Assembly (NCBI GenBank): GCA_025210475.1
Contig: JAOARW010000039.1
Span: forward strand, 22,355-54,354
DNA from: Carboxylicivirga sp.
GTDB lineage: Bacteria > Bacteroidota > Bacteroidia > Bacteroidales > Marinilabiliaceae
Length of the DNA: 32,000 nt
Reading direction: 5' to 3'
Position 1 is the first letter of the stretch; each line of letters opens with the position of its first letter. Position numbers and translations under genes: made by a program. The notes under the pieces were generated by a model. The model searched no databases. It saw nothing but the letters and a program-made list of their open reading frames with translations, and was not told the origin of the DNA. Positions 4,386 to 32,000 of this stretch are shown here, piece by piece.

Positions 4386-4606
4386 ATTCTTACATTTATT
4401 TTTTTTACGATGCATTCTATTTTTTCTTTTCTTATTTCTGGATTTGAGCTATCAAAGGCATCTTCTTCAATAACTTCTACATAATCATCGCAGTCATTAC
4501 AATAAAAATCATAATCATCGATATAGCGATTAACCTCTTCACTATTGATGTTGCACCACATCTTTGTGTCTACATCATAACTGCCACAAATACTACATAC
4601 TTGCAT
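4382..4606 (-). CDS. Small zinc-ribbon protein (74 aa), first gene of the coupled operon
   Basis: Two CxxC pairs (CSIC ... CNDC) with acidic surroundings. ATG start. Confidence 0.5.
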   Translation of the reverse strand: MQVCSICGSYDVDTKMWCNINSEEVNRYIDDYDFYCNDCDDYVEVIEEDAFDSSNPEIRKEKIECIVKKINVRI

Positions 4607-8873: not shown

Positions 8874-9606
8874 CTCCAAAGCAATACAAAGGTAGCCAAC
8901 GTTGCGTTTTAGACTGGTTAAGTTCTGATACATTCCTTTCTAGTTTAAATGAATTGCTAAAAGCTACCGATGCTACTATTAAATTAAGCGATAGTTGGTT
9001 GCCAGTGGATTATGACAATCCGCAGGAAGGGGAATTGAAAGATTTCTTAAAACCTCACTTTGGTGATGAAATAGGAGAGGGTATAAAGAAATGGTGGTTG
9101 TCAATTGCTCATGCAAACGCTCGAACCCCCAATTGGGATTTATTATCAACTGCCACAATAGAAGGTAGCAAGGGTTTAATCCTAGTTGAAGCCAAAGCTC
9201 ATGCTGCGGAATTAGATGGCGAAAGCAAAGGCAAACCCTTAAGAAAAGATGCATCCGAGAACTCAATTGCGAATCACACACAGATTGGTAATGCCATAAA
9301 TGAGGCTAAATTATCAATCAGTAATCACACACAAGTGAATATATCCAGAGATAAATTTTATCAACTCTCGAATCGTGTAGCTCATGCATGGTGGTTAGCT
9401 AATCAAGGTATACCAGTCGTATTACTATACCTTGATTTCTTAATGCCGATGATATGGCAAATGATGGTTATGAAACTTTTAATACAGATGATGATTGGCA
9501 AACATGTTTTATCAATCATGCACAAAAAGTAGGCGTAGATAGCTTATTAAACAAATGGGTTGATTGTGGTAAAAGCAAGTTTATGACCATTTGCAGAAGC
9601 ATATAA
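8870..9606 (+). pseudogene. Frameshifted gene for a hypothetical protein with a possible PD-(D/E)xK-like motif. The reading frame changes at the T-run 9436-9438.
   Basis: The annotated frame ends in an implausible Met-rich tail (LMPMIWQMMVMKLLIQMMIGKHVLSIMHKK). The other frame reads FLNADDMANDGYETFNTDDDWQTCFINHAQKVGVDSLLNKWVDCGKSKFMTICRSI* and is open from 9436 to the stop at 9604-9606. The start overlaps the hsdS stop (ATGA at 8870). A D...LVEAK motif is present. Confidence 0.6.
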
Positions 9607-9638
9607 CTGAAGTATAAACCACTAACCAAACTTAACTA

Positions 9639-13881: not shown

Positions 13882-13916
13882 CTTTTAATTAAACTATTAC
13901 CCTTAGCACAAACAAA

Positions 13917-16900: not shown

Positions 16901-16949
16901 TAAAACAGACGCAATACTACAAATCGTAAAAGCACAGGATGAATATTAA
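13917..16949 (+). CDS. hsdR: Type I restriction-modification system, restriction (helicase-nuclease) subunit R
   Basis: N-terminal PD-(D/E)xK (RPDVVIYVNGIALGVIELKKS). SF2 helicase motifs TQGSGKSLT (I), FVDECHRTQSG (II), GFTGTPL (III) and QALCRVNR (VI). Confidence 0.95.
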   Translation: MNYIGKPERFTQDRVIRFFQDELDYRYLGSWENEERKLPIEEGILYTFLTKKQGCSAYVANKAISKLINAATNLSNGLYEANKEVYSLLRYGTSIAEEVGELKETVHFINWSNYILNDFAIAEEVTVKGKNNKRPDVVIYVNGIALGVIELKKSTKGIEEGITQNLDNQSDEFIPNFFTSMQLVMAGNDTQGIRYGTIQTPAKYYLKWKEDSSQEFDYILDKHILQLCNKERLLELVYDFVIFDAGTKKLCRPNQFFGIKAAQTNILTRQGGILWHTQGSGKSLTMVWLTKWIQENVNDSRVLIITDREELDEQIETLFIGVEESIYRTKSGKDLINTLNHKRHRLIASLVHKFGRTSEEGDFDSYIDELKASIGTDFKAKGNIFVFVDECHRTQSGKLHDAMKSILPDALFIGFTGTPLLKKDKQKSIEVFGPYIGNPYKFDEAVEDGVVLDLLYEARDVEQFITDQQSIDDWFDAETKGLTDVAKVELKRRWGTMQKVLGSKSRLEKIVFDIIKDFKVKPRLANGTGNAMLVSGSVYQACKYYELFQNSGFKECAIITSYEPHIADIKGETTGEGTVTEKALKYEIYQKMLNGKSTDDFETEVKALFIHEPHKMKLLIVVDKLLTGFDAPSATYLYIDKKMQDHGLFQALCRVNRVDTEDKDYGFIIDYKDLFHSIKDSISDYTSNVFDAYDKEDVSGLLKDRFDVSKERLETALEAIRAICEPAHPKTEPGYIRYFCGNTENKEDLQRTEEFRLNLYKATSSLIRAFANIANEMIKAGYSQNEANKIKAEVDFYADLRDTIKQASGDGLNFKLYEPGMRQLMDMYLDAKSSKKISDFENQTLVDLIINVSEPESDYKKKKSKEAVAETIENNVRKVIIEESPANPKYYEKMSVLLDELIKQRKDESISYQEYLMKIKELAEQVVQPTAKTTYPENLDSSAKRALYDNLERNEVLALALDSVIQTQAQDGWRSHPLKLKKIRIAINGLLNDDDKTDAILQIVKAQDEY

Positions 16950-17664
16950 AGATGAAAATTTTACGATTGGCAGTGTTCAAATTGAGGTGGTAAGAAAAAA
17001 CATCAAGAATATGCACTTGGCCGTATATCCTCCTCATGGACGAGTGCGTTTGGCTGCCCCCGAACAAACCGATATAGAAGTGTTAAGGCTTTTTGCCATA
17101 TCAAAGTTATCTTGGTTAAAGAAGAAGATAAAAAGTTTTGAGAATCAGGCGAGGGAAACGGCACGTGAATATGTATCAGGAGAAAGCCATTATTACCAAG
17201 GGAGACGATACTTATTGGAAGTTAAGCACCATAAAGGCTATAATAAAATTGAATTACAAAATCGAAAAATTGTTTTTTATACAAAGGAGTCCGCTACAAC
17301 CGAAACACGTTCTAAGGTATTTAAAGAATGGTATCGAAGAGAACTGAAAAAGCAAATACCAACCTTAATAGATAAATGGCAAAAGGTAATTGGCGTTGAA
17401 GCTGATGAATGGGGAGTAAAGCAAATGCTTACCAAGTGGGGAGCTTGTAATATTGAGGCTAAACGTATATGGCTCAATCTTGAATTGGCAAAAAAGCCAA
17501 CTATTTGTTTAGAATACATTATCGTACACGAGCTCATTCATTTAATAGAGCGAAACCATAATGACAATTTCATTGCTCTAATGGATAAGTTTATGCCTAA
17601 GTGGCGATTACACCGAGATGAATTAAACAGTCTGCCAATCGTGCATAACGATTGGGGGTATTAA
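16939..17664 (+). CDS. DUF45/YgjP-like (M48-related) zinc metallohydrolase
   Basis: HELIHLIERNHNDNF (HExxH followed by a downstream His), typical of DUF45/COG1451. The start overlaps the 3' end of hsdR by 11 nt. Confidence 0.85.
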   Translation: MNIKDENFTIGSVQIEVVRKNIKNMHLAVYPPHGRVRLAAPEQTDIEVLRLFAISKLSWLKKKIKSFENQARETAREYVSGESHYYQGRRYLLEVKHHKGYNKIELQNRKIVFYTKESATTETRSKVFKEWYRRELKKQIPTLIDKWQKVIGVEADEWGVKQMLTKWGACNIEAKRIWLNLELAKKPTICLEYIIVHELIHLIERNHNDNFIALMDKFMPKWRLHRDELNSLPIVHNDWGY

Positions 17665-17682
17665 AAATATTAAATAACCATT

Positions 17683-19425
17683 ATGCACCTAGTATACGTT
17701 TATGTAGAAAACTTTGAAAATAGAGTTAAGAATAAAGAGTATAATCTTAGTTCGAAATACACCATTCATTTTAATAAGGAAACTAAGTATTTAGAAGTGA
17801 AGGAAAATGAGGAGTATATCGATAACTTCTGGCCTGACAATATCTATGATATAAAAGCGATTGTAGGGGAGAATGGGTGTGGTAAATCTACTCTTTTAGA
17901 TATATTATTTTCAAATTCATTTGAACACAGGTCATTCCCTAACTGGGATATACCTATTTTTATTTTCGAAGGCGAGGGAGGTATAGTTGTTCATAAGAGA
18001 AAAGGTTATGATGTTAATATAGACCCTTATATTACAGAATCTCCAATTGACTTTTCTACTAATCATTTTAGGTATAATGAAAATATAAACTCAACAACAA
18101 ATGTTGTTTATTATTCAAACTTATGGGACCAAGAAAACTTCAATAGTGATAAAGAGCATATATTTAATATCTCAACTTCTCAATTAGTAAGTCTTAACCA
18201 GTCAATTACATATAAAGCATTTGAGTTTCAAAGGCAAATTGAGTATGTAACTAATAACAGAACTAATACAACATCTTATATTAAAAATATTCCAGAATAT
18301 ATAAGTGTAAAAATCACAACAGACCTATATGAGATTCTTAAATACAGTACTGATGACGTTACTTTTGATGACATTTTAGGAACATTTATTGATACATTGG
18401 ATGACTTTAAAGAAGACAATGTTACTTCTATATTGAGAAAAAGTTTCTTTTCCGTTCTAGCAAAAGCATACTCTTTGGATATAATGCCATATAAGAATGA
18501 GGAAATGACTCCTATATGGGAATATTTAACAAGTAATTTATCGGAAGAAGTTTCGCTTGTCGATATTATTAGTGAAATTAAAGAAATAGAGAAAAAAATT
18601 AGTTATAAGGATAAAGATAATAGTGTTTCCAATGCAATTGAAAGATTTAGTTCTTTTGAAGTTAAGATGAAAGATGCTGTAGTTGAAATCCTCAATTCAT
18701 CTATGAGCGTTAAGTTCAATGAAGATTTTAATGATATATATGAAGAATACTTAAAATCTATCCCAACTTACCCGTATTTAGAGTTTAGTTGGCGAGAAAT
18801 GAGTAGCGGAGAAAAAGGATTATTAGCTTTATTATCAAGATTCCAATATTTAAAGAAGCTCCCAGCATTTAAGAAAGCAAATCCGAACATAGAAGGACAA
18901 TTGTCAAAAGACCTGATTATAATAATGGATGAAGTTGAGTTGTATTATCACCCAAACTGGCAACGTAAGTTGATTAAAATATTAGTTAATGAAATTGCAC
19001 CTATGTTTAACGGAGCAAAGATTCAATTTATTGTTGCCTCACATTCACCCTTTTTAATATCTGACCTACCAAGAAATAATGTTATTTTTTTAACAAATCA
19101 AGAGGATGGTTTAGCTACGGTGGTAGACCCAACTGGACTAGACCATACTTTTGGAGCAAACATTCATGAATTATTGGCTAATCCATTTTTTATGAAGAGT
19201 ACCTTAGGTGATTTTTCAAAAGAAGTCATTAGTGACCTCATTAAATACACTAAAGGGGAGAAGCAAGAAAGAATTAAAGAAGATGCAATTGCACAAAAGC
19301 TAATTGATGTAATTGGAGAGCCAGTTATTAAAAATAAAATTCAGGATATGCTCAATAAAAGAAGACATAAGACTGAGTTAATTAAGTTTTATAAGGAGCA
19401 AATTATCAAACTAGAAAAGGATTAG
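17683..19425 (+). CDS. ABC/SMC-like AAA ATPase (AAA_15/21-type), PtuA-like (Septu-like system component)
   Basis: Walker A GENGCGKST; signature-like MSSGEKGLLALL; Walker B DLIIIMDEVELYYHP; H-loop VASHSP. The next gene starts 1 nt after its stop. Confidence 0.7.
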   Translation: MHLVYVYVENFENRVKNKEYNLSSKYTIHFNKETKYLEVKENEEYIDNFWPDNIYDIKAIVGENGCGKSTLLDILFSNSFEHRSFPNWDIPIFIFEGEGGIVVHKRKGYDVNIDPYITESPIDFSTNHFRYNENINSTTNVVYYSNLWDQENFNSDKEHIFNISTSQLVSLNQSITYKAFEFQRQIEYVTNNRTNTTSYIKNIPEYISVKITTDLYEILKYSTDDVTFDDILGTFIDTLDDFKEDNVTSILRKSFFSVLAKAYSLDIMPYKNEEMTPIWEYLTSNLSEEVSLVDIISEIKEIEKKISYKDKDNSVSNAIERFSSFEVKMKDAVVEILNSSMSVKFNEDFNDIYEEYLKSIPTYPYLEFSWREMSSGEKGLLALLSRFQYLKKLPAFKKANPNIEGQLSKDLIIIMDEVELYYHPNWQRKLIKILVNEIAPMFNGAKIQFIVASHSPFLISDLPRNNVIFLTNQEDGLATVVDPTGLDHTFGANIHELLANPFFMKSTLGDFSKEVISDLIKYTKGEKQERIKEDAIAQKLIDVIGEPVIKNKIQDMLNKRRHKTELIKFYKEQIIKLEKD

Positions 19426-19426
19426 C

Positions 19427-20425
19427 ATGATTAAAGTTGAAATACCTGAAAATATCATACAACTACATAAAGATAGTTTGCTTCCAAAGGTTCTGAGACG
19501 ACTAAGGCGGAAAATAGAAGAGTGTGACAATGAGGAAACTAAAGCATTTTATGAGCATGTGTTAGATGAGGAGAATGACAATCAAATACTTGAAGATATT
19601 TTAATTGGAAAGCCTCATGAAATTAGGGAGTTAATAAGTTATATTAAAAATAATTTTCAAAGTATTTTTGAACCATTCATGGAGAAAGATTTCAAAAAAG
19701 ACCTGGAATCAATTTTTAATTACAAATCCTTCAGGAATGAAAAAAATGGCTGGGGAGCTTATAAGTTAACCAAGCTATTAGACATAAATACGTGCCCTTA
19801 TTGCAATAGGCAATACACTCATACCTATTATAGTGATACAAAAAAAACAAGGCCTGAATTAGACCATTATTATCCTCAATATAAATATCCTTTTATAGGA
19901 TTGTCATTGTACAATTTAATTCCTTCTTGTCATATATGTAATTCAAACTTAAAGCATAAAGATGATTTTTACAATGATTCACATGTGCATCCATATGAGG
20001 AAGGTTTTGAAGAAGATGCTGTTTTCCGAACTGATTTTGTTAAAGATGAAGATGGACTTTACGATATTGATTTAGTAGATAAAAATAGAACCATCGATGA
20101 CTTTAAATTGCACTTATTGATTGATGAGGAATCAGTGCTAAGAGATAAAATTATCAATAGTAACAATACCTTTTTAATAGAGGAACTTTATCAAAAACAT
20201 AAGGATTATGTTCTTGAGATAATTAGGAAATCTGTTATTTATAATGATACGAAGATAGATGAGTTATTATCCGATTTTGGAAATCTGTTTGATAGTAAAT
20301 CTCAATTGATAGAAACCTTAATAGGCAATTATATCCACAATAAAGATTTAAAAAAGAGGGTGCTATCCAAATTGACAAAGGATATTTGGGATGAGTACGG
20401 TATGAAAGAAATATGGAAGCAATAA
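19427..20425 (+). CDS. HNH endonuclease-domain protein, PtuB-like (Septu-like system component) with a C-terminal extension
   Basis: CPYCNRQ...ELDHYYPQ...YNLIPSCHICNSNLKH, i.e. two Cys pairs plus an H-N-H arrangement. Immediately follows the ATPase. Confidence 0.65.
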   Translation: MIKVEIPENIIQLHKDSLLPKVLRRLRRKIEECDNEETKAFYEHVLDEENDNQILEDILIGKPHEIRELISYIKNNFQSIFEPFMEKDFKKDLESIFNYKSFRNEKNGWGAYKLTKLLDINTCPYCNRQYTHTYYSDTKKTRPELDHYYPQYKYPFIGLSLYNLIPSCHICNSNLKHKDDFYNDSHVHPYEEGFEEDAVFRTDFVKDEDGLYDIDLVDKNRTIDDFKLHLLIDEESVLRDKIINSNNTFLIEELYQKHKDYVLEIIRKSVIYNDTKIDELLSDFGNLFDSKSQLIETLIGNYIHNKDLKKRVLSKLTKDIWDEYGMKEIWKQ

Positions 20426-20964
20426 GCTGTTTTAATAAAATCAATTTTTGGGAATATGCATATTCTAACCTGATTGATAACAGGAATAGGGCAGCATTGG
20501 CTGAGTATATTGTGGCGGAAGCGATGCAAGCAACTAATACACCTGAAACAAGCTGGGAATCATACGATATATTAAGTCCTGAGGGAATTAAGATAGAGGT
20601 AAAGTGTTCCGGGTTTGTTCAGAGTTGGAAACAGAATAAGTTATCCTCTCCATCCTTTGATATTAAAAAGAAATACGGATGGAAGGGTGATACTAATGAA
20701 TGGGACGGAATATTGGATAGGCAAGCAGATGTTTATGTTTTTTGCCTACATACCGAAACAGACAAAGATAATTTGAAGCCTCTTGCGTCTGACAGTTGGA
20801 GATTTTATGTTGTCGCTACCTCTGTCATAAATGAAAAACTACCCGAACACAAGTCAGTTGGAATTTCAACAATTGAAAGTACTCTTAAAGTAAATCGAAT
20901 TAAATACGAAGACTTAAAGCAAGAGATTTTAAACGCATACAATCAGAAAGACAAGGTATCGTAG
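20413..20964 (+). CDS. Hypothetical protein with a candidate PD-(D/E)xK nuclease motif, overlapping the HNH gene
   Basis: YDILSPEGIKIEVKCS fits D-x(n)-E-x-K. The start overlaps the previous gene by 13 nt. The 3' end overlaps the convergent recombinase gene by 22 nt. Confidence 0.4.
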   Translation: MEAISCFNKINFWEYAYSNLIDNRNRAALAEYIVAEAMQATNTPETSWESYDILSPEGIKIEVKCSGFVQSWKQNKLSSPSFDIKKKYGWKGDTNEWDGILDRQADVYVFCLHTETDKDNLKPLASDSWRFYVVATSVINEKLPEHKSVGISTIESTLKVNRIKYEDLKQEILNAYNQKDKVS

Positions 20965-21584
20965 GTTTCCAAAAGCTCATCTTTTGCAATTCCGAGATAG
21001 GTTCTGGTTATCTGAGTTGAAGAATGATTAAACAATTGGCTTAGCTTAACAAGAGCTAATTCAGCCTTAGTGCCAGATTGGTCAAATATAGCTCTCCCAA
21101 AAATTTTACGCATTGAATGTGTCGAAAAATTCTTAATATCAATGTTATAGAGCTCACGAATTTCTTTAAAGATAATGTTAATCCGCTGAATTGAATAGAC
21201 GGTATTCTTTTGGGATGTAAAAATAAAATCATCTGTAGTTCTGGGTTCGATGCCTTTGTGACAGTCTAGAATATGACGCTGTAATTGTAGGTTAATTTTT
21301 ATTTCACGAGTTTTTCCAGTCTTCTTTTCAATAAGAATAAGCTTGTCTTTATTTAATATATCATCCCATTTAAGGCTTAGTAGGTCAGAAATTCGCAGTC
21401 CCCAAAATGTGCCTAGGGATATTAGTAGCGAAATTTTATAATTACCATCATCATATAATCGCCTAATCAGATTGAGGTTTTTATCCCATGGTAGATAGTC
21501 GGCTGTGGTATTCGAATATTTAAGACTCATAATATTCACTTTTAATAGTTTATAAATAAAACTGAAACACTCTTTCAAACTCAT
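20943..21584 (-). CDS. Short tyrosine-type site-specific recombinase (catalytic domain only; alternative start at 21530)
   Basis: Catalytic pattern R (WGLRISDLLSL), HxxR (THSMRKIF), H (NHSS) and Y (TRTYLG). No N-terminal core-binding (SAM-like) domain fits in 195-213 aa. Confidence 0.8.
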   Translation of the reverse strand: MSLKECFSFIYKLLKVNIMSLKYSNTTADYLPWDKNLNLIRRLYDDGNYKISLLISLGTFWGLRISDLLSLKWDDILNKDKLILIEKKTGKTREIKINLQLQRHILDCHKGIEPRTTDDFIFTSQKNTVYSIQRINIIFKEIRELYNIDIKNFSTHSMRKIFGRAIFDQSGTKAELALVKLSQLFNHSSTQITRTYLGIAKDELLETYDTLSF

Positions 21585-21779: not shown

Positions 21780-22022
21780 ATGAGTGAAAAAAATATATCA
21801 AAAGAAAAGTTTGAAAAAATTGGTAGCCACCTCCGGATTTTGCGAAAACAATTCTATAAATGTGGATACATCGAGTTCGCACAAAAAGTAGGAATCGACA
21901 AAAAGACATATTATAATATGGAGAAACCTAAAAACGATTATTCTATTGGCAACCTAATTAAGGTCCTAGAGATGTATGACGATATGAATCTAAGTACATT
22001 TTTTAGAGAGGCTGAATTGTAG
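21780..22022 (+). CDS. XRE-family HTH transcriptional regulator (start reassigned to MSEKN)
   Basis: IGSHLRILRKQFYKCGYIEFAQKVGIDKKTYYNMEKPKN has an HTH_3-like pattern. The track start at 21750 lies inside the palindrome/-7 box region, so the ATG at 21780 is preferred. Confidence 0.7.
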   Translation: MSEKNISKEKFEKIGSHLRILRKQFYKCGYIEFAQKVGIDKKTYYNMEKPKNDYSIGNLIKVLEMYDDMNLSTFFREAEL

Positions 22023-22056
22023 ATTTATTGTTAACCATTAACCTTAATAGAAAATT

Positions 22057-22926
22057 ATGAATGGAGTAATCGCTCAAGTATTATCAATGCTTTCATTTGG
22101 TTTTAGTAATGCATTATGGAGAAGGCCAGTTGGAAAAATGGTAGTTGAAGAAGCTATAATCTATCGTACCATTTTTAGCCTGTCATTTTTTGTTATTCTA
22201 CTATTTACTATTGATGAGAAGTCAACGATAACGATTGAAAGTACATGGGGATTAAACATCTGGTTATTTGCATTCATTATCAGTTGTATTAGTTACTTTG
22301 GACTATTCTTTTATAATAAAGCATTACAATACAGCACAACGGGATTGGTTGTTATTGTAGTAACTACCTCTTTTTTATTCGGGCAATTCACCTCTTTTGT
22401 ACTATTAGGTGAAGTTCCAACAAAAGGATATATCTTACCATTTTTACTTTTTATTATTGCGATTGTTTTATCCGATTATCCATCCATATACAAGTTGAAG
22501 CTATCTAAAGGAGTAGGGTATGGGTTGTTGGCATCAATGTTTTGGGGTATAACATTACCACTATTAAGTATCCCTTCTAAGCAAATAGGGTATATTAAAA
22601 CTGGGTTAGTACTTGAGATTTCGGTAATGTTAATGAGCTTTTTGAGCTTGCATATATATCACAAAAAAAGAATGAGTTATAGAGTTTTTAAAACAGATAT
22701 TCGTTTTTTCATTCTTCTTGGTTTATTAGCAGGTTGTGGCGTGTTGTTTAATAATTTATCCTATACTAAGATTTCTGTTTATATAGCTAGTAGTATTTCT
22801 TCAAGTACACATCTAATATCCATAATTGCAGCTTGGATAATGTTTAAGGAGAAACTTAAACCTTATCAGTATCTAGCAGCTATTGTTTCGGTGCTAGCAA
22901 TTTTTGTTTTATTGCAGGTCACCTAA
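22057..22926 (+). CDS. EamA/DMT-superfamily transporter
   Basis: 289 aa and almost entirely hydrophobic, with about 10 predicted TM segments in two halves. This is typical of a duplicated EamA architecture. Confidence 0.75.
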   Translation: MNGVIAQVLSMLSFGFSNALWRRPVGKMVVEEAIIYRTIFSLSFFVILLFTIDEKSTITIESTWGLNIWLFAFIISCISYFGLFFYNKALQYSTTGLVVIVVTTSFLFGQFTSFVLLGEVPTKGYILPFLLFIIAIVLSDYPSIYKLKLSKGVGYGLLASMFWGITLPLLSIPSKQIGYIKTGLVLEISVMLMSFLSLHIYHKKRMSYRVFKTDIRFFILLGLLAGCGVLFNNLSYTKISVYIASSISSSTHLISIIAAWIMFKEKLKPYQYLAAIVSVLAIFVLLQVT

Positions 22927-25392
22927 AATGAATCCGCAATTCTCAAACATCAGTTTACCTTGTTGCTCTAGTTTTTCATTGCCAAATGGATTCTTAAAAT
23001 AAATATACGCTGTCAATAAATCATATTTGCAATATTTGCTTAACCTGATGGCCATATTGAAATAATCTTTAGCTTGTTGTTCATCTCCTCGTTGAAGAAA
23101 TAATTCTGATGCATATAAGTTAATAAGGACAATATACTGGTAGGAACTGTAATGGCTGGCATTACTTACAGCAAAAGAGGATAATTTGCTTAAATCTTCA
23201 GGATTCAATTTATGCCCTGTTTTGAATTTTGCATAAACCAATAATGAGTTAATTACATCATAATGAAAACTTTCTGCATAGTAGAAAAAATCATCAGGGT
23301 GGTTTAAATTTTCAACTATATCGATTACTGTATTTCCATAATCAATCGCCAGCTTATAATTGCAGGTTAACATTAAAGCATAAACTATAGAAACATCAAA
23401 TAGAAATTCTTTTTGATACCCAATGTGATAATTGGCATAAGCAATCTCTCTCACTCTTAATAATTCATCAAGTGTAATATTTCTTTTCACCTTTTCGCAA
23501 ATGCTTGAGTATAAAATAGAATAAGCAGTTTTTCTTCCTACAGGCCATGGAAAAGTATTTTCGTTAAAATCTAATTTCTCAAGATTAGAATAGTGTTTTA
23601 GGGCTTCCTTTTTATTTAGAGTTAGTAACGAATAATATAGGTGCAAAGATGTTGTGAATAATCTTGCTTCATTGTCGTATTTATATTTGCTGTAGGTTAT
23701 GAGTTGATTATTAAATCCGATTACTAAATTATTAACGTCTACAAAAAGTTCGAATAAAAACTTTTGTGCCTTTGGTATCGATACTAAAGTGTTAATAACG
23801 GTTTGTTGGAAACTACTATGCTTTCTGAGGCAATTACCAATTACAATTGAAAGGTTAATTGTGCTAAAAATATCATCACTCAAAGTGAAAAAGTGACAAA
23901 CATTTTCTAAGTTCTCACTTTCGTAGGCAATGTAAAATAGATGCTCAAATACATTTATTTTAAATTCAAGATTTTCATATTCTTCATCAAGATTGTCCAA
24001 TAATTCAGTATCCAAACCATTATTTATTTTTATAAAATAATAAGCACATAAATAATAGTAGAAATTCACGTGTTTAAAACCTATATGGTAGGTTGGTATA
24101 TGCCCATAAGTTTTTTCGATAAATTCATAAAGAACTCCGTCAGAAAGTAATTCGTTGTATGCTAAGTGGTAATTGCCATTTTGTTTTAAATGTATTGGGT
24201 AATGTTTTTTAATTAGGTTTTTTGGAATAGAAAAGTTGTTATTTTTAGTAATTAGCGCTTCTAAAAGAGCTTCGATAATGTCAATTTTCTCCTCTGCACA
24301 AAATGAATGATAAATATATTTATCAACTAGCTGTTTATATAAATTATGAACCGTTTCTTCGCTTCCCTTTTTATCCGCAAAATTATTACTCTTATAAATT
24401 GCACTATTTATAGGAGTTTGCAATAACGAAATAATCTCAGGATTAGTGATTTGACACCAAATTGCATCAAAAGTGCTAGAACTATCTAATTTTTGCAGTA
24501 CATCAATTACTTCCGCTTGAGAGAGTAAAGGAACATTTATTTGATTTTGCAAAGCTAGTTGACTCTCACTACTCTTAATGCTTAAATGTTCTTGGAATAA
24601 AGGCTGAATATACCTTTGATAGGTAATGTCGCGCACTGAAAAAATAACTTTCAGCCATTTGTATGCTTCATAATTTGCCATAAAATCGATGAACCATAAG
24701 ATGAAGCGTTTTAGTTTCTCAATATTTATGGAAAGCTCATCAATACCATCAACCATGATTATGAACTTACCCTCTGCTAGTTTATGCTCATTAAGTAATT
24801 GAATTGAGTTTGAACTATTCTTTGAAAAATCAATAAAGTTTGAATGCTGGCCATTGTTTTGAAAAGTGTTTTCAAAGACCAAAGCATTCGTAAATAAAAG
24901 TATATCGCTATTATCAACACTTGTGCTTTCGCTCCATTTGCCTAAAAGAGTCGATTTTCCATAACCACCAGGGGCTGTGATTACCGTGAATATTTGTTCT
25001 GAATCTAAAAACTCATTCAATTTTTCCTCTACTGTCAAGCGGTGTATTGATTTAGAATAGTCAGACAGTGATTTTTTCTTAATACTATTTAAACAGTACT
25101 TGGTATATGAGTTCGCCTCTTTTTGAATGTCTTTCCAAAGTGTCTCAATATTTATGACATGCTCTTTGTGAATATCAAACTGGCAATAAATACATAAGGT
25201 ATCCGAATTGTATGGTGAGAGCTTAGAAGAAGATGGGAGTAAACCGAAGAAGCGTCTTAAAGTAGCACTGCTAATACGCCTTTTCGTTTCATCTAATATT
25301 GCTTCCTCCAATATTCGACATTGTTTGGCGGTAGTTACTTTCTCTCCAAATTTTTCTTCAACTGCATAACGCAGCTCTTTTATATTGACCAT
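22909..25392 (-). CDS. NACHT/STAND-like P-loop NTPase with an N-terminal HTH-like segment and a C-terminal helical-repeat (TPR-like) region
   Basis: Walker A ITAPGGYGKSTLLGKW. Walker B of the NACHT style, FIIMVDGIDELS. About 450 aa of helical sequence follow. The N-terminus TTAKQCRILEEAILDETKRRISSATLRRFFG resembles a DNA-binding helix pair. Confidence 0.65.
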   Translation of the reverse strand: MVNIKELRYAVEEKFGEKVTTAKQCRILEEAILDETKRRISSATLRRFFGLLPSSSKLSPYNSDTLCIYCQFDIHKEHVINIETLWKDIQKEANSYTKYCLNSIKKKSLSDYSKSIHRLTVEEKLNEFLDSEQIFTVITAPGGYGKSTLLGKWSESTSVDNSDILLFTNALVFENTFQNNGQHSNFIDFSKNSSNSIQLLNEHKLAEGKFIIMVDGIDELSINIEKLKRFILWFIDFMANYEAYKWLKVIFSVRDITYQRYIQPLFQEHLSIKSSESQLALQNQINVPLLSQAEVIDVLQKLDSSSTFDAIWCQITNPEIISLLQTPINSAIYKSNNFADKKGSEETVHNLYKQLVDKYIYHSFCAEEKIDIIEALLEALITKNNNFSIPKNLIKKHYPIHLKQNGNYHLAYNELLSDGVLYEFIEKTYGHIPTYHIGFKHVNFYYYLCAYYFIKINNGLDTELLDNLDEEYENLEFKINVFEHLFYIAYESENLENVCHFFTLSDDIFSTINLSIVIGNCLRKHSSFQQTVINTLVSIPKAQKFLFELFVDVNNLVIGFNNQLITYSKYKYDNEARLFTTSLHLYYSLLTLNKKEALKHYSNLEKLDFNENTFPWPVGRKTAYSILYSSICEKVKRNITLDELLRVREIAYANYHIGYQKEFLFDVSIVYALMLTCNYKLAIDYGNTVIDIVENLNHPDDFFYYAESFHYDVINSLLVYAKFKTGHKLNPEDLSKLSSFAVSNASHYSSYQYIVLINLYASELFLQRGDEQQAKDYFNMAIRLSKYCKYDLLTAYIYFKNPFGNEKLEQQGKLMFENCGFILGDLQ

Positions 25393-25451
25393 TGCTTCTG
25401 AACGATTCTTCGTTGATTAAACATATACCAACGGAAATTAAGAACATGAAA

Positions 25452-25482
25452 ATTTTCGTTATCTCTGTCTTTTAACGAAAAT
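25452..25482. promoter_or_regulatory. 10-bp-arm inverted repeat in the divergent intergenic region
   Basis: ATTTTCGTTA (25452-25461) and TAACGAAAAT (25473-25482) with an 11-nt spacer. A third TAACGAAAT copy lies at 25539-25547. Confidence 0.35.
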
Positions 25483-25520
25483 AATCAAAGCCTCTAGAAT
25501 TATCACCCTTCGTGACAAAA

Positions 25521-25538
25521 TTGACAAGTTTGACAAGT
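25521..25538. repeat. Tandem direct repeat TTGACAAGT x2, preceded by a degenerate copy
   Basis: TTGACAAGT at 25521-25529 and again at 25530-25538. GTGACAAAA at 25512-25520 is a 6/9 match. The repeat lies between the STAND gene and the LRR gene. Confidence 0.4.
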
Positions 25539-25607
25539 AACGAAATGATAAGATAGGTTGTAAAACGGATATTATAAAAATAACCACTTAATGCTTTGAT
25601 TTTTGCT

Positions 25608-28418
25608 ATGAGAAAAATAATTGTAAAAGTATGTTTTATCGTATTAGCATTATTGCTAAAACTTTCATCAGTCAACTCCCAAACAACATTAACAATTGAT
25701 GATGTTGATTTTGATTATGAGGCTGGTGTCATTACAAAATATAACGCAACATTTACCCAAATAATAGTTCCTTCAGAATTAGATGGTGTTGCTGTAAGAG
25801 AAATTGGTGTTAGAGCTTTTGATAACAAGGGCATAACAAATCTTGACTTGCCTGGAACATTATTAGAAATTAGAGGAAATGCATTTAGTAATAATGAAAT
25901 TAGGACTATTATAATTCCTGAAGGTGTTAAGGCAATTGGGAAATCGGCATTTAGTCTTAATTTACTTGAAACTATAAGTATAGCATCATCGGTTGAATCG
26001 ATAGGAGAAAGTGCTTTTGCAAATAGTAAACATAAAGACAATATTCCAAATGTATATCTTACTTTTAACTCTCATAGTAAATTGTTGGATATTGGAGATT
26101 TTGCATTTGCCAATGCTTTCTTAGTTACTACTGGAGATATACCACTTACGGTTAAGAATATTGGTAATGGCGTATTTGCTAATAACTCAATTAGTAACCT
26201 TGATTTGTCTTTAACAAATATTGTAAGTATAGGAGCTAATGCTTTTAATAAAAATAGCTTAAGGGTTGTGAAATTACCAAACTCATTGAGAGAAATTGGA
26301 AGTAATGCTTTTAGCAATAACAATAATGTGCTAGTTAATTTGCCAGAATATTTAGAAGAAAGGAGTCAGTTCATAAATTGGATAGATTCCAATGGTAACA
26401 CATATGATAAAGGTGCAAGAATAAGTGACTATTCGTTATCATACAAAGCTCAGTATTATTATACTCTGGGTGATGTGGACGTAGAAGTGTCGGAAGGTGT
26501 AATAACTAATTGTTCCTATGATTTCTTCAGTAAATATATCAAAATACCATCTCAAATTGGAGGAGAGCAAATAATTAGGATTGGTCACAATGTCTTTTTC
26601 CAAAAAGAACTTAAAGCGGTTAATCTTCCTCTTTCTTTGCAATCAATTGGTTCATATTCTTTTGGGCAAACTTCGCTAACTGAAGTTTCATTTCCTGAAG
26701 GTTTGTTGGAAATTGAACAAGGAGCTTTTTCGAATAATTCACTCAGTTCGATTAGCCTGCCGAGTTCGATTAAATACATTGGAAAGCAGGCGTTTATTGG
26801 CAATTCTTTTGACAGATTTAACTTGCCTAAATCTAATGATGAATTATTTGTTGGATGGCATATTTATGATTACTCTAAACAAGATGAAATAATTGATGGA
26901 GGAGCTGTTGATGTAGGGTCGCATTCTTCAGGTATTCTTCCCTCATATACAAAACTTGAATATTACATATTGTCTGATACTGATGTGGAAATGTCTCAAG
27001 GTGTGATACAATTTTGCTCCTACAGCTTTGATAATAAGTGTATTCTAATACCTGAAGAGCTGAAAGGACAGAAGGTTGTAGGTATTGCGAGCAAAAATTC
27101 TGAATATAATGGTGTATTCGGAAGTAAAGGGTTAATGCGAGTGAAACTTCCTAATACGTTAGAACATATTGGGGTATTCGCATTCTCAGGTAATAGAATT
27201 TCACAAGTTGATTTACCAGAATCGTTGACGGTTATTGACCGTTGGGCGTTTAATAATTGTCATTTAGAAAAATTAACACTTCCCACATCTCTTAATAGTA
27301 TAGCTTTTAAAGCTTTTTTTGAAAATGACATAAGGGAAATAGCCTTTAATACATCTATAAATACCATTGGTGAGAGTGCTTTTGAAAACAATTCTTTAAG
27401 TACAATTGAACTTCCTAATTCAATTACTTTTATTGGAGAAAAAGCTTTCTATAGTAATAATATCAGTGAATTTCGACTTCCTTATCCATCAAAGGAAGGC
27501 TATCAATTTAAAGAGTGGCAAGATTATAATAACAATAGTTTTGAAGCAGAAGCTAGGGTTAGTGACCTTTATAGTTCGTACACGGCAATTCTAGAAGGTT
27601 CTATTATTGAGTTAACAACTTGGGAAAATTCTATTGGTAATGTTGTTATAAAAGATGAAATCCAATTCTCTGACAACTTTGTTGATAGCAGAGGATATAT
27701 TGATTTTAGTATATGGAACAGGGGGAATAAGTCAATGACCATTACAGAAATTAGGATTCCAGATGGTTTTGAAATAGGCTCAGAAGCTTGGCCCATTGAA
27801 ATAAACCCAAATACTGGACATAGCGTAACTTTATATTTTGCTCCAACTAAAATTGGTAACTATAATGGGGGGGTAGAAGTTGTTGGTAATTTTACAGGAG
27901 GTGTAAATACTTTTAATGTAAATGGGAATTGTATCAATAGGTCATATCTAATAACAACAATATCTGGCGAAGGGGGAAATATTACTCCGCAAAATCCAAC
28001 GCTTGTTGAAGGTAGTGAGCAAGAGTTTGTATTTACTCCTAATGAAGGTTTTTCTATTGATGAAATTTTTGTTGATGGAGTTTTACTTGAGAACAATGTA
28101 CATACTTATAATTTAGTTGTTACAGAGAATCATTCTATAGAAGTGGTTTTTAAATTAGCTACTTCCATCAATAAGAATAGCCAAATAGACAAGTTAAATC
28201 TCTATCCAAACCCAACTTTGGGCAGATTTAAAATAAATATAGGGGATGTAACCAAGGATGCTAAAATCGAAATATACAGCCTTTCAGGAAGGTTGTTGTT
28301 TTCAGATTATTTCCAATCCAGCGAATATAATTTTAAAGAAGACCTCAAGAAAGGTGTCTATATTGTGATGGTAAAAACATCAAACAAAAGTTATAGTCAA
28401 AAATTGATTGTTCGATAG
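25608..28418 (+). CDS. BspA-type leucine-rich-repeat surface protein with an InlB-B-repeat-like domain and a T9SS C-terminal sorting domain
   Basis: Signal peptide MRKIIVKVCFIVLALLLKLSSVNSQ; the ATG at 25608 is preferred to the TTG at 25596. Many I..IG..AF..N.L..I.LP.S repeats are present. The C-terminus LNLYPNPTLGRFKINIG...KGVYIVMVKTSNKSYSQKLIV is T9SS-type. Confidence 0.85.
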   Translation: MRKIIVKVCFIVLALLLKLSSVNSQTTLTIDDVDFDYEAGVITKYNATFTQIIVPSELDGVAVREIGVRAFDNKGITNLDLPGTLLEIRGNAFSNNEIRTIIIPEGVKAIGKSAFSLNLLETISIASSVESIGESAFANSKHKDNIPNVYLTFNSHSKLLDIGDFAFANAFLVTTGDIPLTVKNIGNGVFANNSISNLDLSLTNIVSIGANAFNKNSLRVVKLPNSLREIGSNAFSNNNNVLVNLPEYLEERSQFINWIDSNGNTYDKGARISDYSLSYKAQYYYTLGDVDVEVSEGVITNCSYDFFSKYIKIPSQIGGEQIIRIGHNVFFQKELKAVNLPLSLQSIGSYSFGQTSLTEVSFPEGLLEIEQGAFSNNSLSSISLPSSIKYIGKQAFIGNSFDRFNLPKSNDELFVGWHIYDYSKQDEIIDGGAVDVGSHSSGILPSYTKLEYYILSDTDVEMSQGVIQFCSYSFDNKCILIPEELKGQKVVGIASKNSEYNGVFGSKGLMRVKLPNTLEHIGVFAFSGNRISQVDLPESLTVIDRWAFNNCHLEKLTLPTSLNSIAFKAFFENDIREIAFNTSINTIGESAFENNSLSTIELPNSITFIGEKAFYSNNISEFRLPYPSKEGYQFKEWQDYNNNSFEAEARVSDLYSSYTAILEGSIIELTTWENSIGNVVIKDEIQFSDNFVDSRGYIDFSIWNRGNKSMTITEIRIPDGFEIGSEAWPIEINPNTGHSVTLYFAPTKIGNYNGGVEVVGNFTGGVNTFNVNGNCINRSYLITTISGEGGNITPQNPTLVEGSEQEFVFTPNEGFSIDEIFVDGVLLENNVHTYNLVVTENHSIEVVFKLATSINKNSQIDKLNLYPNPTLGRFKINIGDVTKDAKIEIYSLSGRLLFSDYFQSSEYNFKEDLKKGVYIVMVKTSNKSYSQKLIVR

Positions 28419-28493
28419 GTTGTCATACTATAATTGTACTAGTTGCACTTAAAGAAAGGGTCTTTAGTTATAGCATATAAAAACTTCTTACAT

Positions 28494-28537
28494 AAATGCT
28501 CTAAAATGCTTTCTATGCCTTTTAGAGCATTTGTTTT
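28494..28537 (+). terminator. Intrinsic terminator-like hairpin downstream of the LRR gene
   Basis: AAATGCTCTAAAA (28494-28506) pairs perfectly with TTTTAGAGCATTT (28520-28532) across a 13-nt loop, followed by GTTTT. Confidence 0.55.
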
Positions 28538-28873
28538 GAACTGTTCTGTTAATAACATCGAAAATCCTTCTCTCAGAGCCTTAATAACCTTTTTTTTATT
28601 CAAAAAAGCTTTTCTGGCGTCCAGAGGGCATATTGCTATGGTTTAGTTAGCACAATAGTGAATAATTTCAGTTTCAAACTCATTTTTGGTCTATCGCTTC
28701 ACTTAGATATTTTTATCAAAAACGGCTCTCAGATGCATAGAAAACATTTTCATGTATCAGTAATGTGTATTTTTTACTTGTGCCAACTTAATCTTAATAT
28801 TATCAATCAAGACAATTCAGATGTTATAAAAGTAAGCGCAAAAAGTTAGAGGAAATAAAAATAGGACAAAAAA

Positions 28874-29785
28874 TTACTTTTTTATTTGACCGTTGTAGAA
28901 ATCATCTGCTTTCTTGAAAATGATGTTCTCATGAATATTGATTGCAAATTCTTCAACTTTATCAATTACATCATCAACAACTTCCTTAGATATTTTTATT
29001 TTATCACCATTTTTGTTTTTACCGTTTCTATGCACTAAGTCATGCCGTTTACCAATAATTTCCATCAATTCTTCTATTCTCGGAAAATCAATTTTGAAAG
29101 TGCCTTTGTACATCTTTCTTACAATGTGCAAGTTGTGGTATATTACATTTAATAATTCTTTCTTAATAATATCGTTTAATTGCTCTAACTTACTGTATAT
29201 CTGAGTTAAGTCAAATATATATTTTTTAAATACCTCATTAGATTTAACAAAATTCTTAAAATACTCTTCGTTGTTTAACGTCTTTTCAATCAGTGTTGTC
29301 GATAGAAAATCTTCTAAACATGTTATTGAGTTAGAATATATTTGTCTTTGTAATGCTTCTTGCAATTCATCATCATCAAGAACAACGTTATTTAGTTTCC
29401 TTAATTTAGAAATCTCATTATTGAATTGGTCGATAAATTTAGTACTGGCCTTTATGGACTCAATACGTTCATCCATCATTAACATGTAGTCTTTATAATC
29501 TTCATCATCAATAGTTTCAAGTGTTATTGTGTCATCATCTGCATCTTCAACATCTACCCATGCATCACCCCAACCTGCATAAACAGTAACATAAAAGTGT
29601 TTGCCGCATTTTTCACATTCAGCAACACTAAAATTATCACCATGAGAATCACTTGGTTTTTCAGCATCCATATTTGGGGATGGTAATGATATTTCTTCAC
29701 TAATAACCTTATTTTCGCATTTGTCACATCTAAAATTTGCAATAATTGCTTGAACACCATAATGTGAAAATTCACACATTCCCAT
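28874..29785 (-). CDS. Zinc-ribbon protein with a C-terminal helical domain carrying an Rx4H (HEPN-like) motif
   Basis: N-terminal CDKC...CEKC pairs, an acidic linker (VEDADDDTITLETIDDEDYKDY), then a helical domain of about 200 aa ending in GKRHDLVHRNG (R-x4-H). Confidence 0.5.
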   Translation of the reverse strand: MGMCEFSHYGVQAIIANFRCDKCENKVISEEISLPSPNMDAEKPSDSHGDNFSVAECEKCGKHFYVTVYAGWGDAWVDVEDADDDTITLETIDDEDYKDYMLMMDERIESIKASTKFIDQFNNEISKLRKLNNVVLDDDELQEALQRQIYSNSITCLEDFLSTTLIEKTLNNEEYFKNFVKSNEVFKKYIFDLTQIYSKLEQLNDIIKKELLNVIYHNLHIVRKMYKGTFKIDFPRIEELMEIIGKRHDLVHRNGKNKNGDKIKISKEVVDDVIDKVEEFAINIHENIIFKKADDFYNGQIKK

Positions 29786-29799
29786 AATAACTATTTCTT

Positions 29800-31209
29800 T
29801 TAATTTCTATTTTGCCTCCAACCGCCACATTTTTTTTCAGCTTCTTTAATACGTTTAACAACATCCAGAGTTAGGGTATTGTCAATTTTTCCTGTTTCAA
29901 AATCTGATACTTTACTTTCTGTTTGATTCTGTAATAGATTAACATCGGTAGGAATCGCATGTCCTCTTTCATTATCAAATGAATCAATAATTTCTTTCGT
30001 TAAAGTACCATAAGTAATCATAGGAGGATACAGTGAACATCGTTTGTTTTGCAAAGAAGTAATAATTTGTGTCTTGTCTGCATAGAACTTATTGATTGTT
30101 GGAATGCCAATTTTATAAAAGCCACCGCTACGAATAGATGAGGATTGAATACCACATCCTTTAAAGCATACATTTCTTAAATATGAACCGTCAAAAAGTG
30201 TACTTTTTATTACACAATTCCATATTTTTAGATTTTCTAATAAAGAACTATGAATCTGAGTTTCCTCAAATAGTGATTTGAAAAATGTAGTTCCCCCTGA
30301 AATGTTAGTGCCTAATAATTTACATTGATATAATTCGGTCATGCCAATATGACAATTAAGAATATTAGTGCCAATAAAAGATGAACTGTATTGTGAGCCG
30401 CTAACTCGTGTCTGTTCAATAAAACTATCATTAAAATTAACTTTGTTGCAATGAGTAAAAGTTAGATTAACGTTACTTAAAATTGAACTACTAAAGTCAC
30501 ATTTTTGCAATTTGGAACTACTAAAATCATTTCGATTAAATTTTGAATTGATAAAATCAGTTTTGTAAAAAGATGATGAATTAAAATTAACATGTTCTAG
30601 ATTGGCATTGTTAATTTCAGCGTTCCTTAATTCCAACCCTTGTAAATAACTACCATTTAAATCAGCCTTAAATTCCTTAAAACTAAATTCATTTTTTTCT
30701 CTTTTTTTAAAGAGTATATTGATTAGGGTTATAATTTCGTTAGATGGTTTGTTACTATATATGTTTTTATAGGTTGGGTTGTTTGTGCTTGTTCTAATAT
30801 GTGAACAAAGAACATTAAATACTAATTCTTTGAACTCAGCAGGGTATTCCATCCCTAAATGAAATAGTGATTGGATTCCACCAATTCGTGCAGATTCATG
30901 TAGATTTCCAAGTAACTCTATAGCTTTCTGAAACCTATTGTTTCTTTCACTTTTAGATTGAAGGTTAATTTGTTGCTGTTGGTTAACTAAGCGATTATTG
31001 TTGATTGAGATGTTAATTATTAAACCAATTACCCCAAATACAGTAATCCAAACAGAAAAGAAATCTTTTAGAGGTAAGCCAAGAGTGTAAATGTTTCCAA
31101 TATCCCATCCGAGCCAATCATTTATGGCTATCCCCACAAATGGAATTAAGAAAAAGGCAAAAAGGATAATTGGTGTGATATACTTCTTTAGGAACTTTTT
31201 AAATTTCAT
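29800..31209 (-). CDS. Membrane-anchored pentapeptide-repeat protein
   Basis: Two N-terminal TM helices (YITPIILFAFFLIPFVGIAI and FFSVWITVFGVIGLIINISI). Unbroken 5-residue periodicity runs for about 36 pentads from ADLNG/SYLQG/LELRN/AEINN/ANLEH onward. The ATG at 31209 is preferred (27-34 nt downstream of a -7 box); the track start at 31254 is a TTG. Confidence 0.8.
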   Translation of the reverse strand: MKFKKFLKKYITPIILFAFFLIPFVGIAINDWLGWDIGNIYTLGLPLKDFFSVWITVFGVIGLIINISINNNRLVNQQQQINLQSKSERNNRFQKAIELLGNLHESARIGGIQSLFHLGMEYPAEFKELVFNVLCSHIRTSTNNPTYKNIYSNKPSNEIITLINILFKKREKNEFSFKEFKADLNGSYLQGLELRNAEINNANLEHVNFNSSSFYKTDFINSKFNRNDFSSSKLQKCDFSSSILSNVNLTFTHCNKVNFNDSFIEQTRVSGSQYSSSFIGTNILNCHIGMTELYQCKLLGTNISGGTTFFKSLFEETQIHSSLLENLKIWNCVIKSTLFDGSYLRNVCFKGCGIQSSSIRSGGFYKIGIPTINKFYADKTQIITSLQNKRCSLYPPMITYGTLTKEIIDSFDNERGHAIPTDVNLLQNQTESKVSDFETGKIDNTLTLDVVKRIKEAEKKCGGWRQNRN

Positions 31210-31242
31210 TCGATTTAGGTTATGAAAGAGTTTCATTTCCTT

Positions 31243-31250
31243 CAAATATA
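31243..31250 (-). promoter_or_regulatory. Bacteroidota-type -7 box (TAnnTTTG) for the pentapeptide/HEPN operon
   Basis: Plus-strand CAAATATA is TATATTTG on the minus strand. Confidence 0.4.
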
Positions 31251-31325
31251 TCAATTGTTATTTCGCAATTGACTAATTATTTGAAGATGTTTCATGAGGT
31301 AGTGAATTTGAAAAATTGAAATCAT

Positions 31326-31333
31326 TAAATTTG
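31326..31333 (+). promoter_or_regulatory. Bacteroidota-type -7 box (TAnnTTTG) for the ORF starting at 31353
   Basis: TAAATTTG ends 19 nt upstream of the ATG at 31353. Confidence 0.4.
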
Positions 31334-31352
31334 GCCAACCTAAATAATGAAT

Positions 31353-32000
31353 ATGAGCACATTTAAAGACATTACAATATCTTTTGCTAACCTATTGAAA
31401 AATAGGGCAAGAAATCCATTCTATGGAACTCTTATTTTAGTATATCTGATTCGAAATCATCAGTCTATCTATCAACTGTTTTTTATTAAACAAACTACAT
31501 TGAAGGCAAGGTTAGGTATACTGAGTGAACTATTTGGCCAAGGTTTCATTAAAGAATTATCAATCTGTGTAGGTTTGGCCTTTTTAGCGATGCTGATTTC
31601 ATATGTCCTTACAAATATTAGTGAATTACTACAGGTCTTTTTTAAGCAAGTGGTTAATGTTTGGGTTCAAAAACTAATTGATAAAATCACTAATAAAACT
31701 AACACTTATTCAAAGGAGGACTATTTGAAAATGGGAGAGGAGAAAGACTTTTTCGAAAAAAAGTTTAATGCAGAAAGGGATAAAAGGTTATTAACAGAGA
31801 AAGAGCGAGATGACTTTGAAGAGACAATTAAGAAGCAAAATTCGGATATTGCAAGTAGCAGGAATACAGCAATGAAAAAGGATGATGAATACCAAAAAAT
31901 ACTCAAAGAAAAGGGCGAATTAGAGAATGAGTTGGATTGGTACAAAAGTGAGTTGGATAAAAGTGGAGTAATAAATAATTCTGCTCCTACTGAAATGTCA
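31353..32000 (+). CDS. Hypothetical membrane/coiled-coil protein, 3'-truncated by the window end (absent from the ORF track)
   Basis: My own translation from the ATG at 31353 gives 216 codons with no stop up to nt 32000: MSTFKDITISFANLLKNRARNPFYGTLILVYLIRNH...ICVGLAFLAMLISYVL...KEDYLKMGEEKDFFEKKFNAERDKRLLTEKERDDFEETIKKQ.... The antisense track ORF 31721..31945 is its shadow. Confidence 0.55.
   Translation, partial: MSTFKDITISFANLLKNRARNPFYGTLILVYLIRNHQSIYQLFFIKQTTLKARLGILSELFGQGFIKELSICVGLAFLAMLISYVLTNISELLQVFFKQVVNVWVQKLIDKITNKTNTYSKEDYLKMGEEKDFFEKKFNAERDKRLLTEKERDDFEETIKKQNSDIASSRNTAMKKDDEYQKILKEKGELENELDWYKSELDKSGVINNSAPTEMS

Follow-up and report, generated by a model that had tools for sequence, protein, structure and literature searches.

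A zinc-ribbon HEPN gene beside a membrane-anchored pentapeptide-repeat gene in Carboxylicivirga: two adjacent genes, probably from separate solitary families

The two genes and their products

The window analyzed in this work, i.e., the whole stretch of 32,000 nucleotides taken from contig JAOARW010000039.1 of Carboxylicivirga sp. (assembly GCA_025210475.1), is AT-rich, with a GC content ranging from 30 to 39%. Its minus strand, to which all the features of the two genes described below belong, carries two adjacent open reading frames (ORFs), 29800..31254 and 28874..29785, separated by a spacer of 14 nt (29786..29799), exactly as reported in a preliminary description made from the sequence. 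The upstream gene (gene 1) codes for a membrane-anchored pentapeptide-repeat protein and the downstream one (gene 2) for a protein joining a zinc ribbon to a HEPN domain of the RiboL-PSP-HEPN family; according to the preliminary description, the two might represent a new, coupled sensor/effector system.

Gene 2 (28874..29785, stop codon included) encodes 303 amino acids (aa), which fall into three regions. The N-terminal one (aa 1–93, 29507..29785) is a predicted beta-rich Cys4 zinc ribbon, whose strands occupy residues 2–93 of the AlphaFold2 (AF2) model and whose two CxxC pairs are C20/C23 (29717–29728) and C57/C60 (29606–29617); all four cysteines are kept throughout the zinc-ribbon subfamily, and the matches of this domain to Pfam zinc fingers are weak. 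It is followed by an acidic linker (aa 71–115, 29441..29575; 16 D/E vs. 3 K/R), which shares residues with the final strands of the N-terminal domain and with the helix that opens the next one. The C-terminal HEPN domain (aa 116–303, 28877..29440) is predicted to be all-helical, as are residues 95–302 of the AF2 model (predicted local distance difference test, pLDDT, of 90.5; helices of this domain at residues 117–302), and harbors the single Rx4H motif of the protein, RHDLVH (R247–H252, 29030..29047), which closes the helix spanning residues 238–252 and is followed by an invariant RNG. The two CxxC pairs, the acidic linker and the RHDLVH motif had all been recognized previously.

The comparison of 84 sequences of the gene-2 family, whose E values against the window protein are as low as 1e-128, revealed that conservation peaks at RHDxVHRNG and at E158. 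Indeed, no variation occurs at E158, H248, V251, H252, R253, N254, and G255, while at least 90% of the sequences have R247. Forty of the 84 homologues match the Pfam model PF18735 (HEPN_RiboL-PSP) at E ≤ 0.01, and five of them (P0010, P0016, P0064, P0079, and P0080) exceed its gathering score (28.4 bits), with alignments covering model positions 7–191 of 191. On this basis, the HEPN assignment already proposed is supported, and we accept gene 2 as a predicted HEPN protein of the RiboL-PSP-HEPN family; its membership in PF18735 is a transitive one, since the homologues, and not the window protein, match the model. Searched by itself, the gene 2 protein matched no Pfam, NCBIfam, or PADLOC family, and no sequence in the PDB. 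Judged from its sequence, gene 2 adds a new member to an HEPN family that is known but uncharacterized.

This family is large: a profile search of 1.84 billion representatives retrieved no fewer than 2,292 of its clusters (50% identity). Nearly all of the top 150 clusters have a length of 240–310 aa (typically about 290 aa), and the N-termini may consist of a Cys4 zinc ribbon, of a region beginning with “MGRAKE...” and lacking the Cys pairs, of a HEPN/RES-NTD1 domain, or of longer extensions. Such swappable N-termini are consistent with the organization typical of sensor-effector defence proteins. Examples of HEPN domains joined to differing N-terminal modules, including long cyanobacterial extensions, are P0169, P0177, P0159, P0079, and P0080; the N-terminal domain of P0169, about 240 aa long, bears a likeness, recognized by eye, to nucleoside phosphorylase. 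Searches of plasmids and phages retrieved only distant, HEPN-level matches (23–37% identity).

As for gene 1, the mechanically defined ORF opens with a TTG codon at 31254 and would give 484 aa. This codon, like the ATG at 31236, overlaps or adjoins the sequence TATATTTG (31243..31250), which resembles a Bacteroidota -7-type promoter box (TAnnTTTG) and is located about 34 nt 5' of a third candidate, the ATG at 31209. We took the latter as the start (29800..31209, stop codon included), as does the public gene call (P0085, 469 aa, 100% identical); no other start would fit a transcript initiated immediately 3' of TATATTTG. The box noted in the preliminary description is indeed present at 31250–31243; however, its motif shows no enrichment over the window (39 sites vs. 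50 ± 7 expected), so that the promoter call is one of position, and the end coordinate given there for the gene pair, 31250, falls within the box and not at a codon boundary. A scan for sigma-70 promoters was uninformative, the model being unsuited to Bacteroidota.

The 469-aa protein begins with two putative transmembrane (TM) helices, which were located through Kyte-Doolittle means over 19-residue windows. The first (about aa 10–30, 31120..31182) reaches a hydropathy of 2.59 and corresponds to an AF2 helix at residues 2–33; the second (about aa 49–69, 31003..31065) reaches 2.18 and falls within an AF2 helix at residues 47–100. The first helix is preceded by the basic stretch MKFKKFLKK, from which, following the positive-inside rule, we infer that the N-terminus, and likewise all that follows the two TM helices, would be cytoplasmic. 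Next comes a juxtamembrane helical domain (aa 70–181, 30667..31002) with the signature RFxKAIELLG, which is the most conserved part of the gene-1 family (R92, F93, E98, L100, G101, G110, and L115 are invariant in 18 homologues) and for which AF2 predicted helices at residues 105–167 with pLDDT > 90, the helical region reaching aa 167.

The central part of the protein (aa 182–366, 30112..30666) contains 37 in-register, uninterrupted pentapeptide repeats, against the “about 36” counted previously, with a hydrophobic residue at the center of 35 of them. Gene 1 passes the cut-offs of the Pfam families PF00805 (Pentapeptide, 42.6 bits vs. 20.2) and PF13599 (Pentapeptide_4, 43.8 vs. 38), and phmmer matches it to pentapeptide proteins in the PDB. 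Its AF2 model (pLDDT 85.4 overall and >90 across aa 180–360) matched in Foldseek the structures of HetL, AlbG, EfsQnr, QnrB1, and MfpA (E 1e-9 to 1e-5). As modelled, the repeat domain is a right-handed quadrilateral beta-helix, in agreement with the fold foreseen in the preliminary description.

The latter had also suggested that this domain might mimic DNA. The surfaces of MfpA and Qnr are strongly electronegative and mimic B-DNA; the composition of the gene 1 repeats (14 D/E vs. 16 K/R in 185 aa, net +2) is not acidic, and the DNA-mimic reading therefore lacks support. Nor can gene 1 be taken as a Qnr or MfpA equivalog, its scores (21.2 and 18.5 bits) being far below the respective cut-offs (240 and 360). 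Most likely, the beta-helix is a rigid protein-binding scaffold and not a DNA mimic. The protein ends with a helical tail (aa 367–469, 29803..30111) terminating in CGGWRQNRN, which is kept only in five full-length homologues sharing about 40% identity with gene 1 and in the relative L004.

The two genes are likely co-transcribed, since no minus-strand TAnnTTTG box occurs in the spacer or elsewhere before gene 2, and a terminator-like hairpin with a T-run (28613..28625, minus strand) lies about 250 nt 3' of gene 2. This hairpin, the sole terminator-like site in 28300–31500, is weak evidence, given that 0.8 such sites are expected by chance. No further gene is found 3' of gene 2 until a convergent leucine-rich-repeat (LRR) gene.

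Distribution of the two families and genomic setting

The relatives of gene 2 were sought in a set of 185,579 species genomes (one genome per species), and the best 80 of the 200 loci retrieved were examined for a partner resembling gene 1, using a hidden Markov model of gene 1 that also picks up generic pentapeptide proteins. A pentapeptide gene was found upstream of the gene-2 homologue in just one of the 80 loci (L005), which belongs to the same contig as the related locus L003 and holds the gene-2 homologue closest to that of the window (66% identity). An unrelated pentapeptide gene also occurs at a cyanobacterial locus, at a distance of 4 kb and encoded by the other strand. The next-closest metagenomic homologues of gene 2, P0005 and P0007 (55–58% identity), have no pentapeptide neighbor, and the N-terminal extensions of the four longer gene-2-family proteins inspected contain no pentapeptide repeats. 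The all-against-all BLAST clustering of the genes surrounding the gene-2 homologues did not disclose any recurrent family; the 72 same-strand neighbors closer than 200 nt embed 93 Pfam families, none of them occurring in more than two neighbors, and Pfam and PADLOC scans carried out member by member did not detect a recurrent partner either.

The same picture emerged from the analysis of gene 1. Three of its five full-length homologues, all sharing the GWRQNR tail, were looked up; their neighbors are an MmeI-type restriction-modification (R-M) enzyme, HNH-containing genes, or ParE; a HEPN gene adjoins none of the three. Eighty further metagenomic loci combining TM helices, the RFxKAIELLG signature, and pentapeptide repeats revealed neither a gene-2-like HEPN gene nor, upon all-against-all BLAST clustering of the neighbors, a recurrent partner; overall, the former is present in none of the 84 gene-1-family loci. 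Hence, both gene families are normally solitary, with no conserved partner; gene 1 shows no general association with HEPN proteins, and the two families, which almost never occur together elsewhere, adjoin each other in a single small clade only. The preliminary description had itself indicated that a lack of co-conservation in other genomes would speak against a coupled module; since the two families turned out not to be co-conserved, the coupling it inferred is not supported.

Among the closest full-length homologues of gene 1, the one in L087 (423–4899) overlaps an MmeI-type R-M gene by 17 nt at the 3' end of the latter, and the one in L088 (125–5023) overlaps a four-gene run including an HNH protein by 20 nt. 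These overlaps suggest that the gene-1 pentapeptide subfamily may be linked to defence operons with changing partners.

Concerning gene 2, its homologues are often located beside R-M, BREX, DISARM, or Lamassu genes; their immediate neighbors include PglX, BrxH, subunits of Type I, II, and III R-M systems, LmuA, DrmD, and mad5, and Tn3 transposase and integrase genes also adjoin them. In the window, too, the setting is that of a defence island, with Type I R-M, GmrSD, AAA_21 ATPase, and integrase genes nearby. The order of the island is HsdM, HsdS, two GmrSD-type genes, HsdR, and YgjP, then an AAA_21 ATPase with two small genes and a tyrosine recombinase of 213 aa; the gene pair sits about 7 kb beyond the latter, at the island edge.

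The Type I R-M locus (5179–17664) comprises HsdM (5179–7617), HsdS (7611–8873), and HsdR (13917–16949), with a GmrSD_N+DUF7834 gene (9639–11084), a GmrSD_N+GmrSD_C gene (11077–13881), and a gene for a 220-aa protein inserted between hsdS and hsdR, and a YgjP metallopeptidase gene (16939–17664) following HsdR. The following block (17683–21584) encodes a 580-aa AAA_21/AAA_15 ATPase, a 332-aa protein with a non-significant HNH match (E 0.078), a 183-aa protein with a precomputed Pfam match to Phage_T4_End_IV, and, on the opposite strand, the 213-aa tyrosine recombinase. This block is 88–96% conserved in the related contig and may represent a three-gene defence system.

Other genes of the window are a divergent gene upstream of the pair (31347–32000, plus strand; complete in L001, 1169–2128), whose 319-aa product has a hydrophobic N-terminal and a charged, coiled-coil-like C-terminal part and whose sole family match is a weak one to an RTX N-terminal domain (E 9e-4); a gene for a 179-aa protein (755–1294), whose N-terminus bears a zf-FCS/MYM-type zinc finger (E 2e-6); and two abutting minus-strand genes (3490–4415), coding for 124 and 183 aa, which have one base (4041) in common and lack family matches.

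The related contig mentioned above, DHQH01000076.1 (L003/L005), is labelled as Alphaproteobacteria bacterium UBA5343 and carries genes 88–96% identical to those of the Bacteroidota window; it is probably mis-binned. The 228-aa call of its gene-1 homologue might be mistaken for a pseudogene; the apparent truncation is artefactual and stems from a run of N inside the assembled gene. Compared with the window, the recombinase, the 183-aa and 332-aa proteins, and the ATPase are 88–96% identical, whereas gene 1 shares 47% and gene 2 66% identity with their counterparts; 3' of gene 2, a stretch of 83 nt (28692–28774) is 89% identical. A block of about 6.7 kb (~21977–28692) is missing from L003/L004, so that there the pair and the recombinase region are immediate neighbors. 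In the window, this indel contains genes for an EamA transporter, an 827-aa protein with a sub-threshold match to nSTAND NTPase5 (E 0.003), and a 940-aa BspA-LRR protein sorted by the type IX secretion system.

Possible readings of the locus

Based on the data reported above, we consider it moderately probable that the two adjacent, probably co-transcribed genes come from separate solitary families, i.e., that a solo HEPN gene of the defence type has a chance neighbor and that the two do not form a two-component system. The best reading of gene 2 is that of a self-contained sensor-plus-HEPN protein of the abortive-infection type, as suggested by its defence-gene neighbors and by its modular N-terminus. 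According to this idea, gene 2, a predicted RNase complete with zinc ribbon, acidic linker, and RiboL-PSP-HEPN domain, would be kept inactive by its variable N-terminal domain, which would also recognize a cue of phage infection; two HEPN domains would then pair, R247 and H252 of the two subunits building up a composite RNA-cutting active site, and the cleavage of RNA would halt translation and abort the infection. This scheme would follow the logic demonstrated experimentally for RAZR (PD-T7-4), whose HEPN family is a different one. Gene 1, in turn, would expose its helical domain and its 37-repeat beta-helix to the cytoplasm, anchored to the membrane and presumably acting independently of gene 2.

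Several observations weigh against this reading. The two genes lie on the same strand and just 14 nt apart, and gene 2 lacks a TAnnTTTG box of its own. The only related genome available keeps the pair, with a spacer of 6 nt (L003), and the pair is far more diverged than the genes flanking it. Moreover, the gene 2 protein of the window matches none of the Pfam HEPN models at E ≤ 1, its AF2 model matched no solved HEPN structure in Foldseek, and both families are experimentally uncharacterized.

The spacing in the two genomes, the missing box, and the divergence of the pair, together with its position beside an integrase-bounded defence island, would rather fit a lineage-specific two-gene module, moving or diversifying as a cassette, in which the HEPN RNase would be tethered, inhibited, or activated through gene 1; for instance, gene 1 could perceive an event at the envelope, or an injection, and set the RNase free. 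This is the idea of the preliminary description narrowed down to the clade in question. We regard such a module as rather unlikely, and the credit left to it is mainly due to the fact that the replacement of a cassette could explain the divergence. Indeed, a pair more diverged than its flanks fits with a cassette moving or evolving as a unit; still, on the strength of one comparison, the same pattern could derive either from the fast diversification of two independently conflict-related genes or from replacement by a diverged cassette. Besides, the pair is present in only two related genomes and is missing in 79 of the 80 genome loci, beside the next-closest metagenomic homologues, and in all the gene-1-family loci; no fusion was found among the four longer gene-2-family proteins inspected; the HEPN family works with many other N-terminal domains and neighbors, which implies that a pentapeptide partner is not needed; and plain synteny would equally give the pair in one related genome.

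A particular mechanism might be imagined for a young two-component cassette of this kind, with the beta-helix of gene 1 docking and silencing the RNase of gene 2 at the inner membrane and releasing it when phage entry perturbs the envelope. Although its diversification or exchange as a unit would explain the 47–66% identity of the pair against that of the flanks, we consider this proposal improbable.

It might also be argued that neither gene has a role in biological conflicts, gene 2 being a housekeeping zinc-finger protein for RNA processing or regulation and gene 1 a membrane scaffold or a transport-related protein like the cyanobacterial HglK-type ones. In favor of this idea, neither of the two proteins nor their families (including the 84 members of the gene-2 family) match any PADLOC model, and the gene-1 relatives occur in varied, partly metabolic contexts, e.g., with glycoside-hydrolase-like neighbors in termite-gut contigs. 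However, the distribution of gene 2 is patchy (200 relatives in the whole set of species genomes), its positions vary and are often close to defence genes, transposases, and integrases, it diverges fast with respect to its flanks, and its HEPN Rx4H motif is strictly conserved; a role outside conflict appears, thus, very improbable.

Lastly, a toxin-antitoxin pair comparable to the HEPN-MNT modules, with gene 2 as a constitutively active HEPN toxin and gene 1 as its antitoxin, is hardly credible: HEPN toxins are well known in two-gene modules (Anantharaman et al. 2013, PMC3710099) and the order of an upstream gene followed by a toxin gene would fit, but gene 1 is a pentapeptide protein and neither an MNT nucleotidyltransferase nor an antitoxin of a known type, it is membrane-bound and 469 aa long, unlike the small labile antitoxins, no other gene lies 3' of gene 2 before the convergent LRR gene, and a family with hundreds of members lacking a conserved neighbor cannot depend on a dedicated antitoxin.

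We therefore return to gene 2 as, probably, a solo HEPN gene with a chance neighbor. The pentapeptide fold and the HEPN call of the preliminary description are supported, as is the defence setting, whereas the coupling and the DNA mimicry are not; the proposed new two-gene defence system does not hold up, and the useful part that remains is the gene-2 family, which is large, uncharacterized, and missing from the 2023 PADLOC catalogue.

Comparison with known systems

The pentapeptide protein shares with Qnr, MfpA, AlbG, and HetL the right-handed quadrilateral beta-helix of tandem pentapeptides predicted by the model, and differs from them in its length (469 aa), in its two TM anchors and additional helical domains, and in the net charge of +2 of its repeats. 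Another possible comparison is with Hailong, outlined via PMC13434031 (Tan et al. 2025) as a two-gene defence operon in which a membrane effector, HalA, is joined to a nucleotidyltransferase, HalB. As far as this outline goes, gene 1 resembles HalA in being a membrane protein belonging to a gene pair, and it shows a weak match to the HalA NCBIfam model (E 8e-5). Nevertheless, the match (21.9 bits vs. a cut-off of 250) covers aa 210–290 only, inside the repeats, the partner is a HEPN protein and not a HalB nucleotidyltransferase, and HalA is absent among the top 50 Foldseek PDB matches listed; gene 1 was not, on these grounds, considered a HalA.

As for gene 2, Ribo L-PSP-HEPN has been counted among the active HEPN families, with AbiD and AbiF as distant relatives; its founding members either carry a fused endoRNase L-PSP domain or occur in ParB operons (Anantharaman et al. 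2013, Biol Direct 8:15, PMC3710099). The C-terminal domain of the gene-2 family matches the corresponding model, PF18735, end to end, retains the Rx4H motif, and is likewise bacterial and conflict-associated; in contrast, what the gene-2 branch has at its N-terminus is a Cys4 zinc ribbon or a domain of another kind.

The closest characterized architecture is that of RAZR (PD-T7-4), a ring-activated zinc-finger RNase that senses phage ring assemblies (Nature 2026, PMC13017515). RAZR is a solitary single gene whose product has a Cys4 zinc ribbon at the N-terminus, connected through a linker to a HEPN RNase at the C-terminus; the N-terminal domain is variable and determines specificity, and the protein brings about abortive infection through RNA cleavage (PMC13017515). 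Its HEPN domain belongs to DUF4145, with the catalytic residues R146 and H154 eight residues apart (PMC13017515). Gene 2, too, combines a Cys4 zinc ribbon, a linker, and, at the C-terminus, a HEPN domain in a solitary gene. Unlike RAZR, it has an Rx4H motif; neither gene 2 nor its family matches DUF4145, the PD-T7-4 model of PADLOC was not matched, and neither the PDB sequence search nor Foldseek related the protein to RAZR, so that it was not regarded as a RAZR homologue. We also considered whether the divergence between gene 2 and its counterpart in the related contig is concentrated in one domain, as in the variable zinc finger of RAZR; it is roughly uniform (73% identity in the zinc ribbon, 56% in the linker, and 66% in the HEPN domain). 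By analogy, gene 2 plausibly works like RAZR. Since RAZR demonstrated the sensing of phage ring assemblies by a zinc-ribbon/HEPN protein, the gene-2 family is a reasonable candidate for a second, independent lineage with the sensor-plus-HEPN design, and testing its role in defence would be cheap, requiring one gene and two point mutants.

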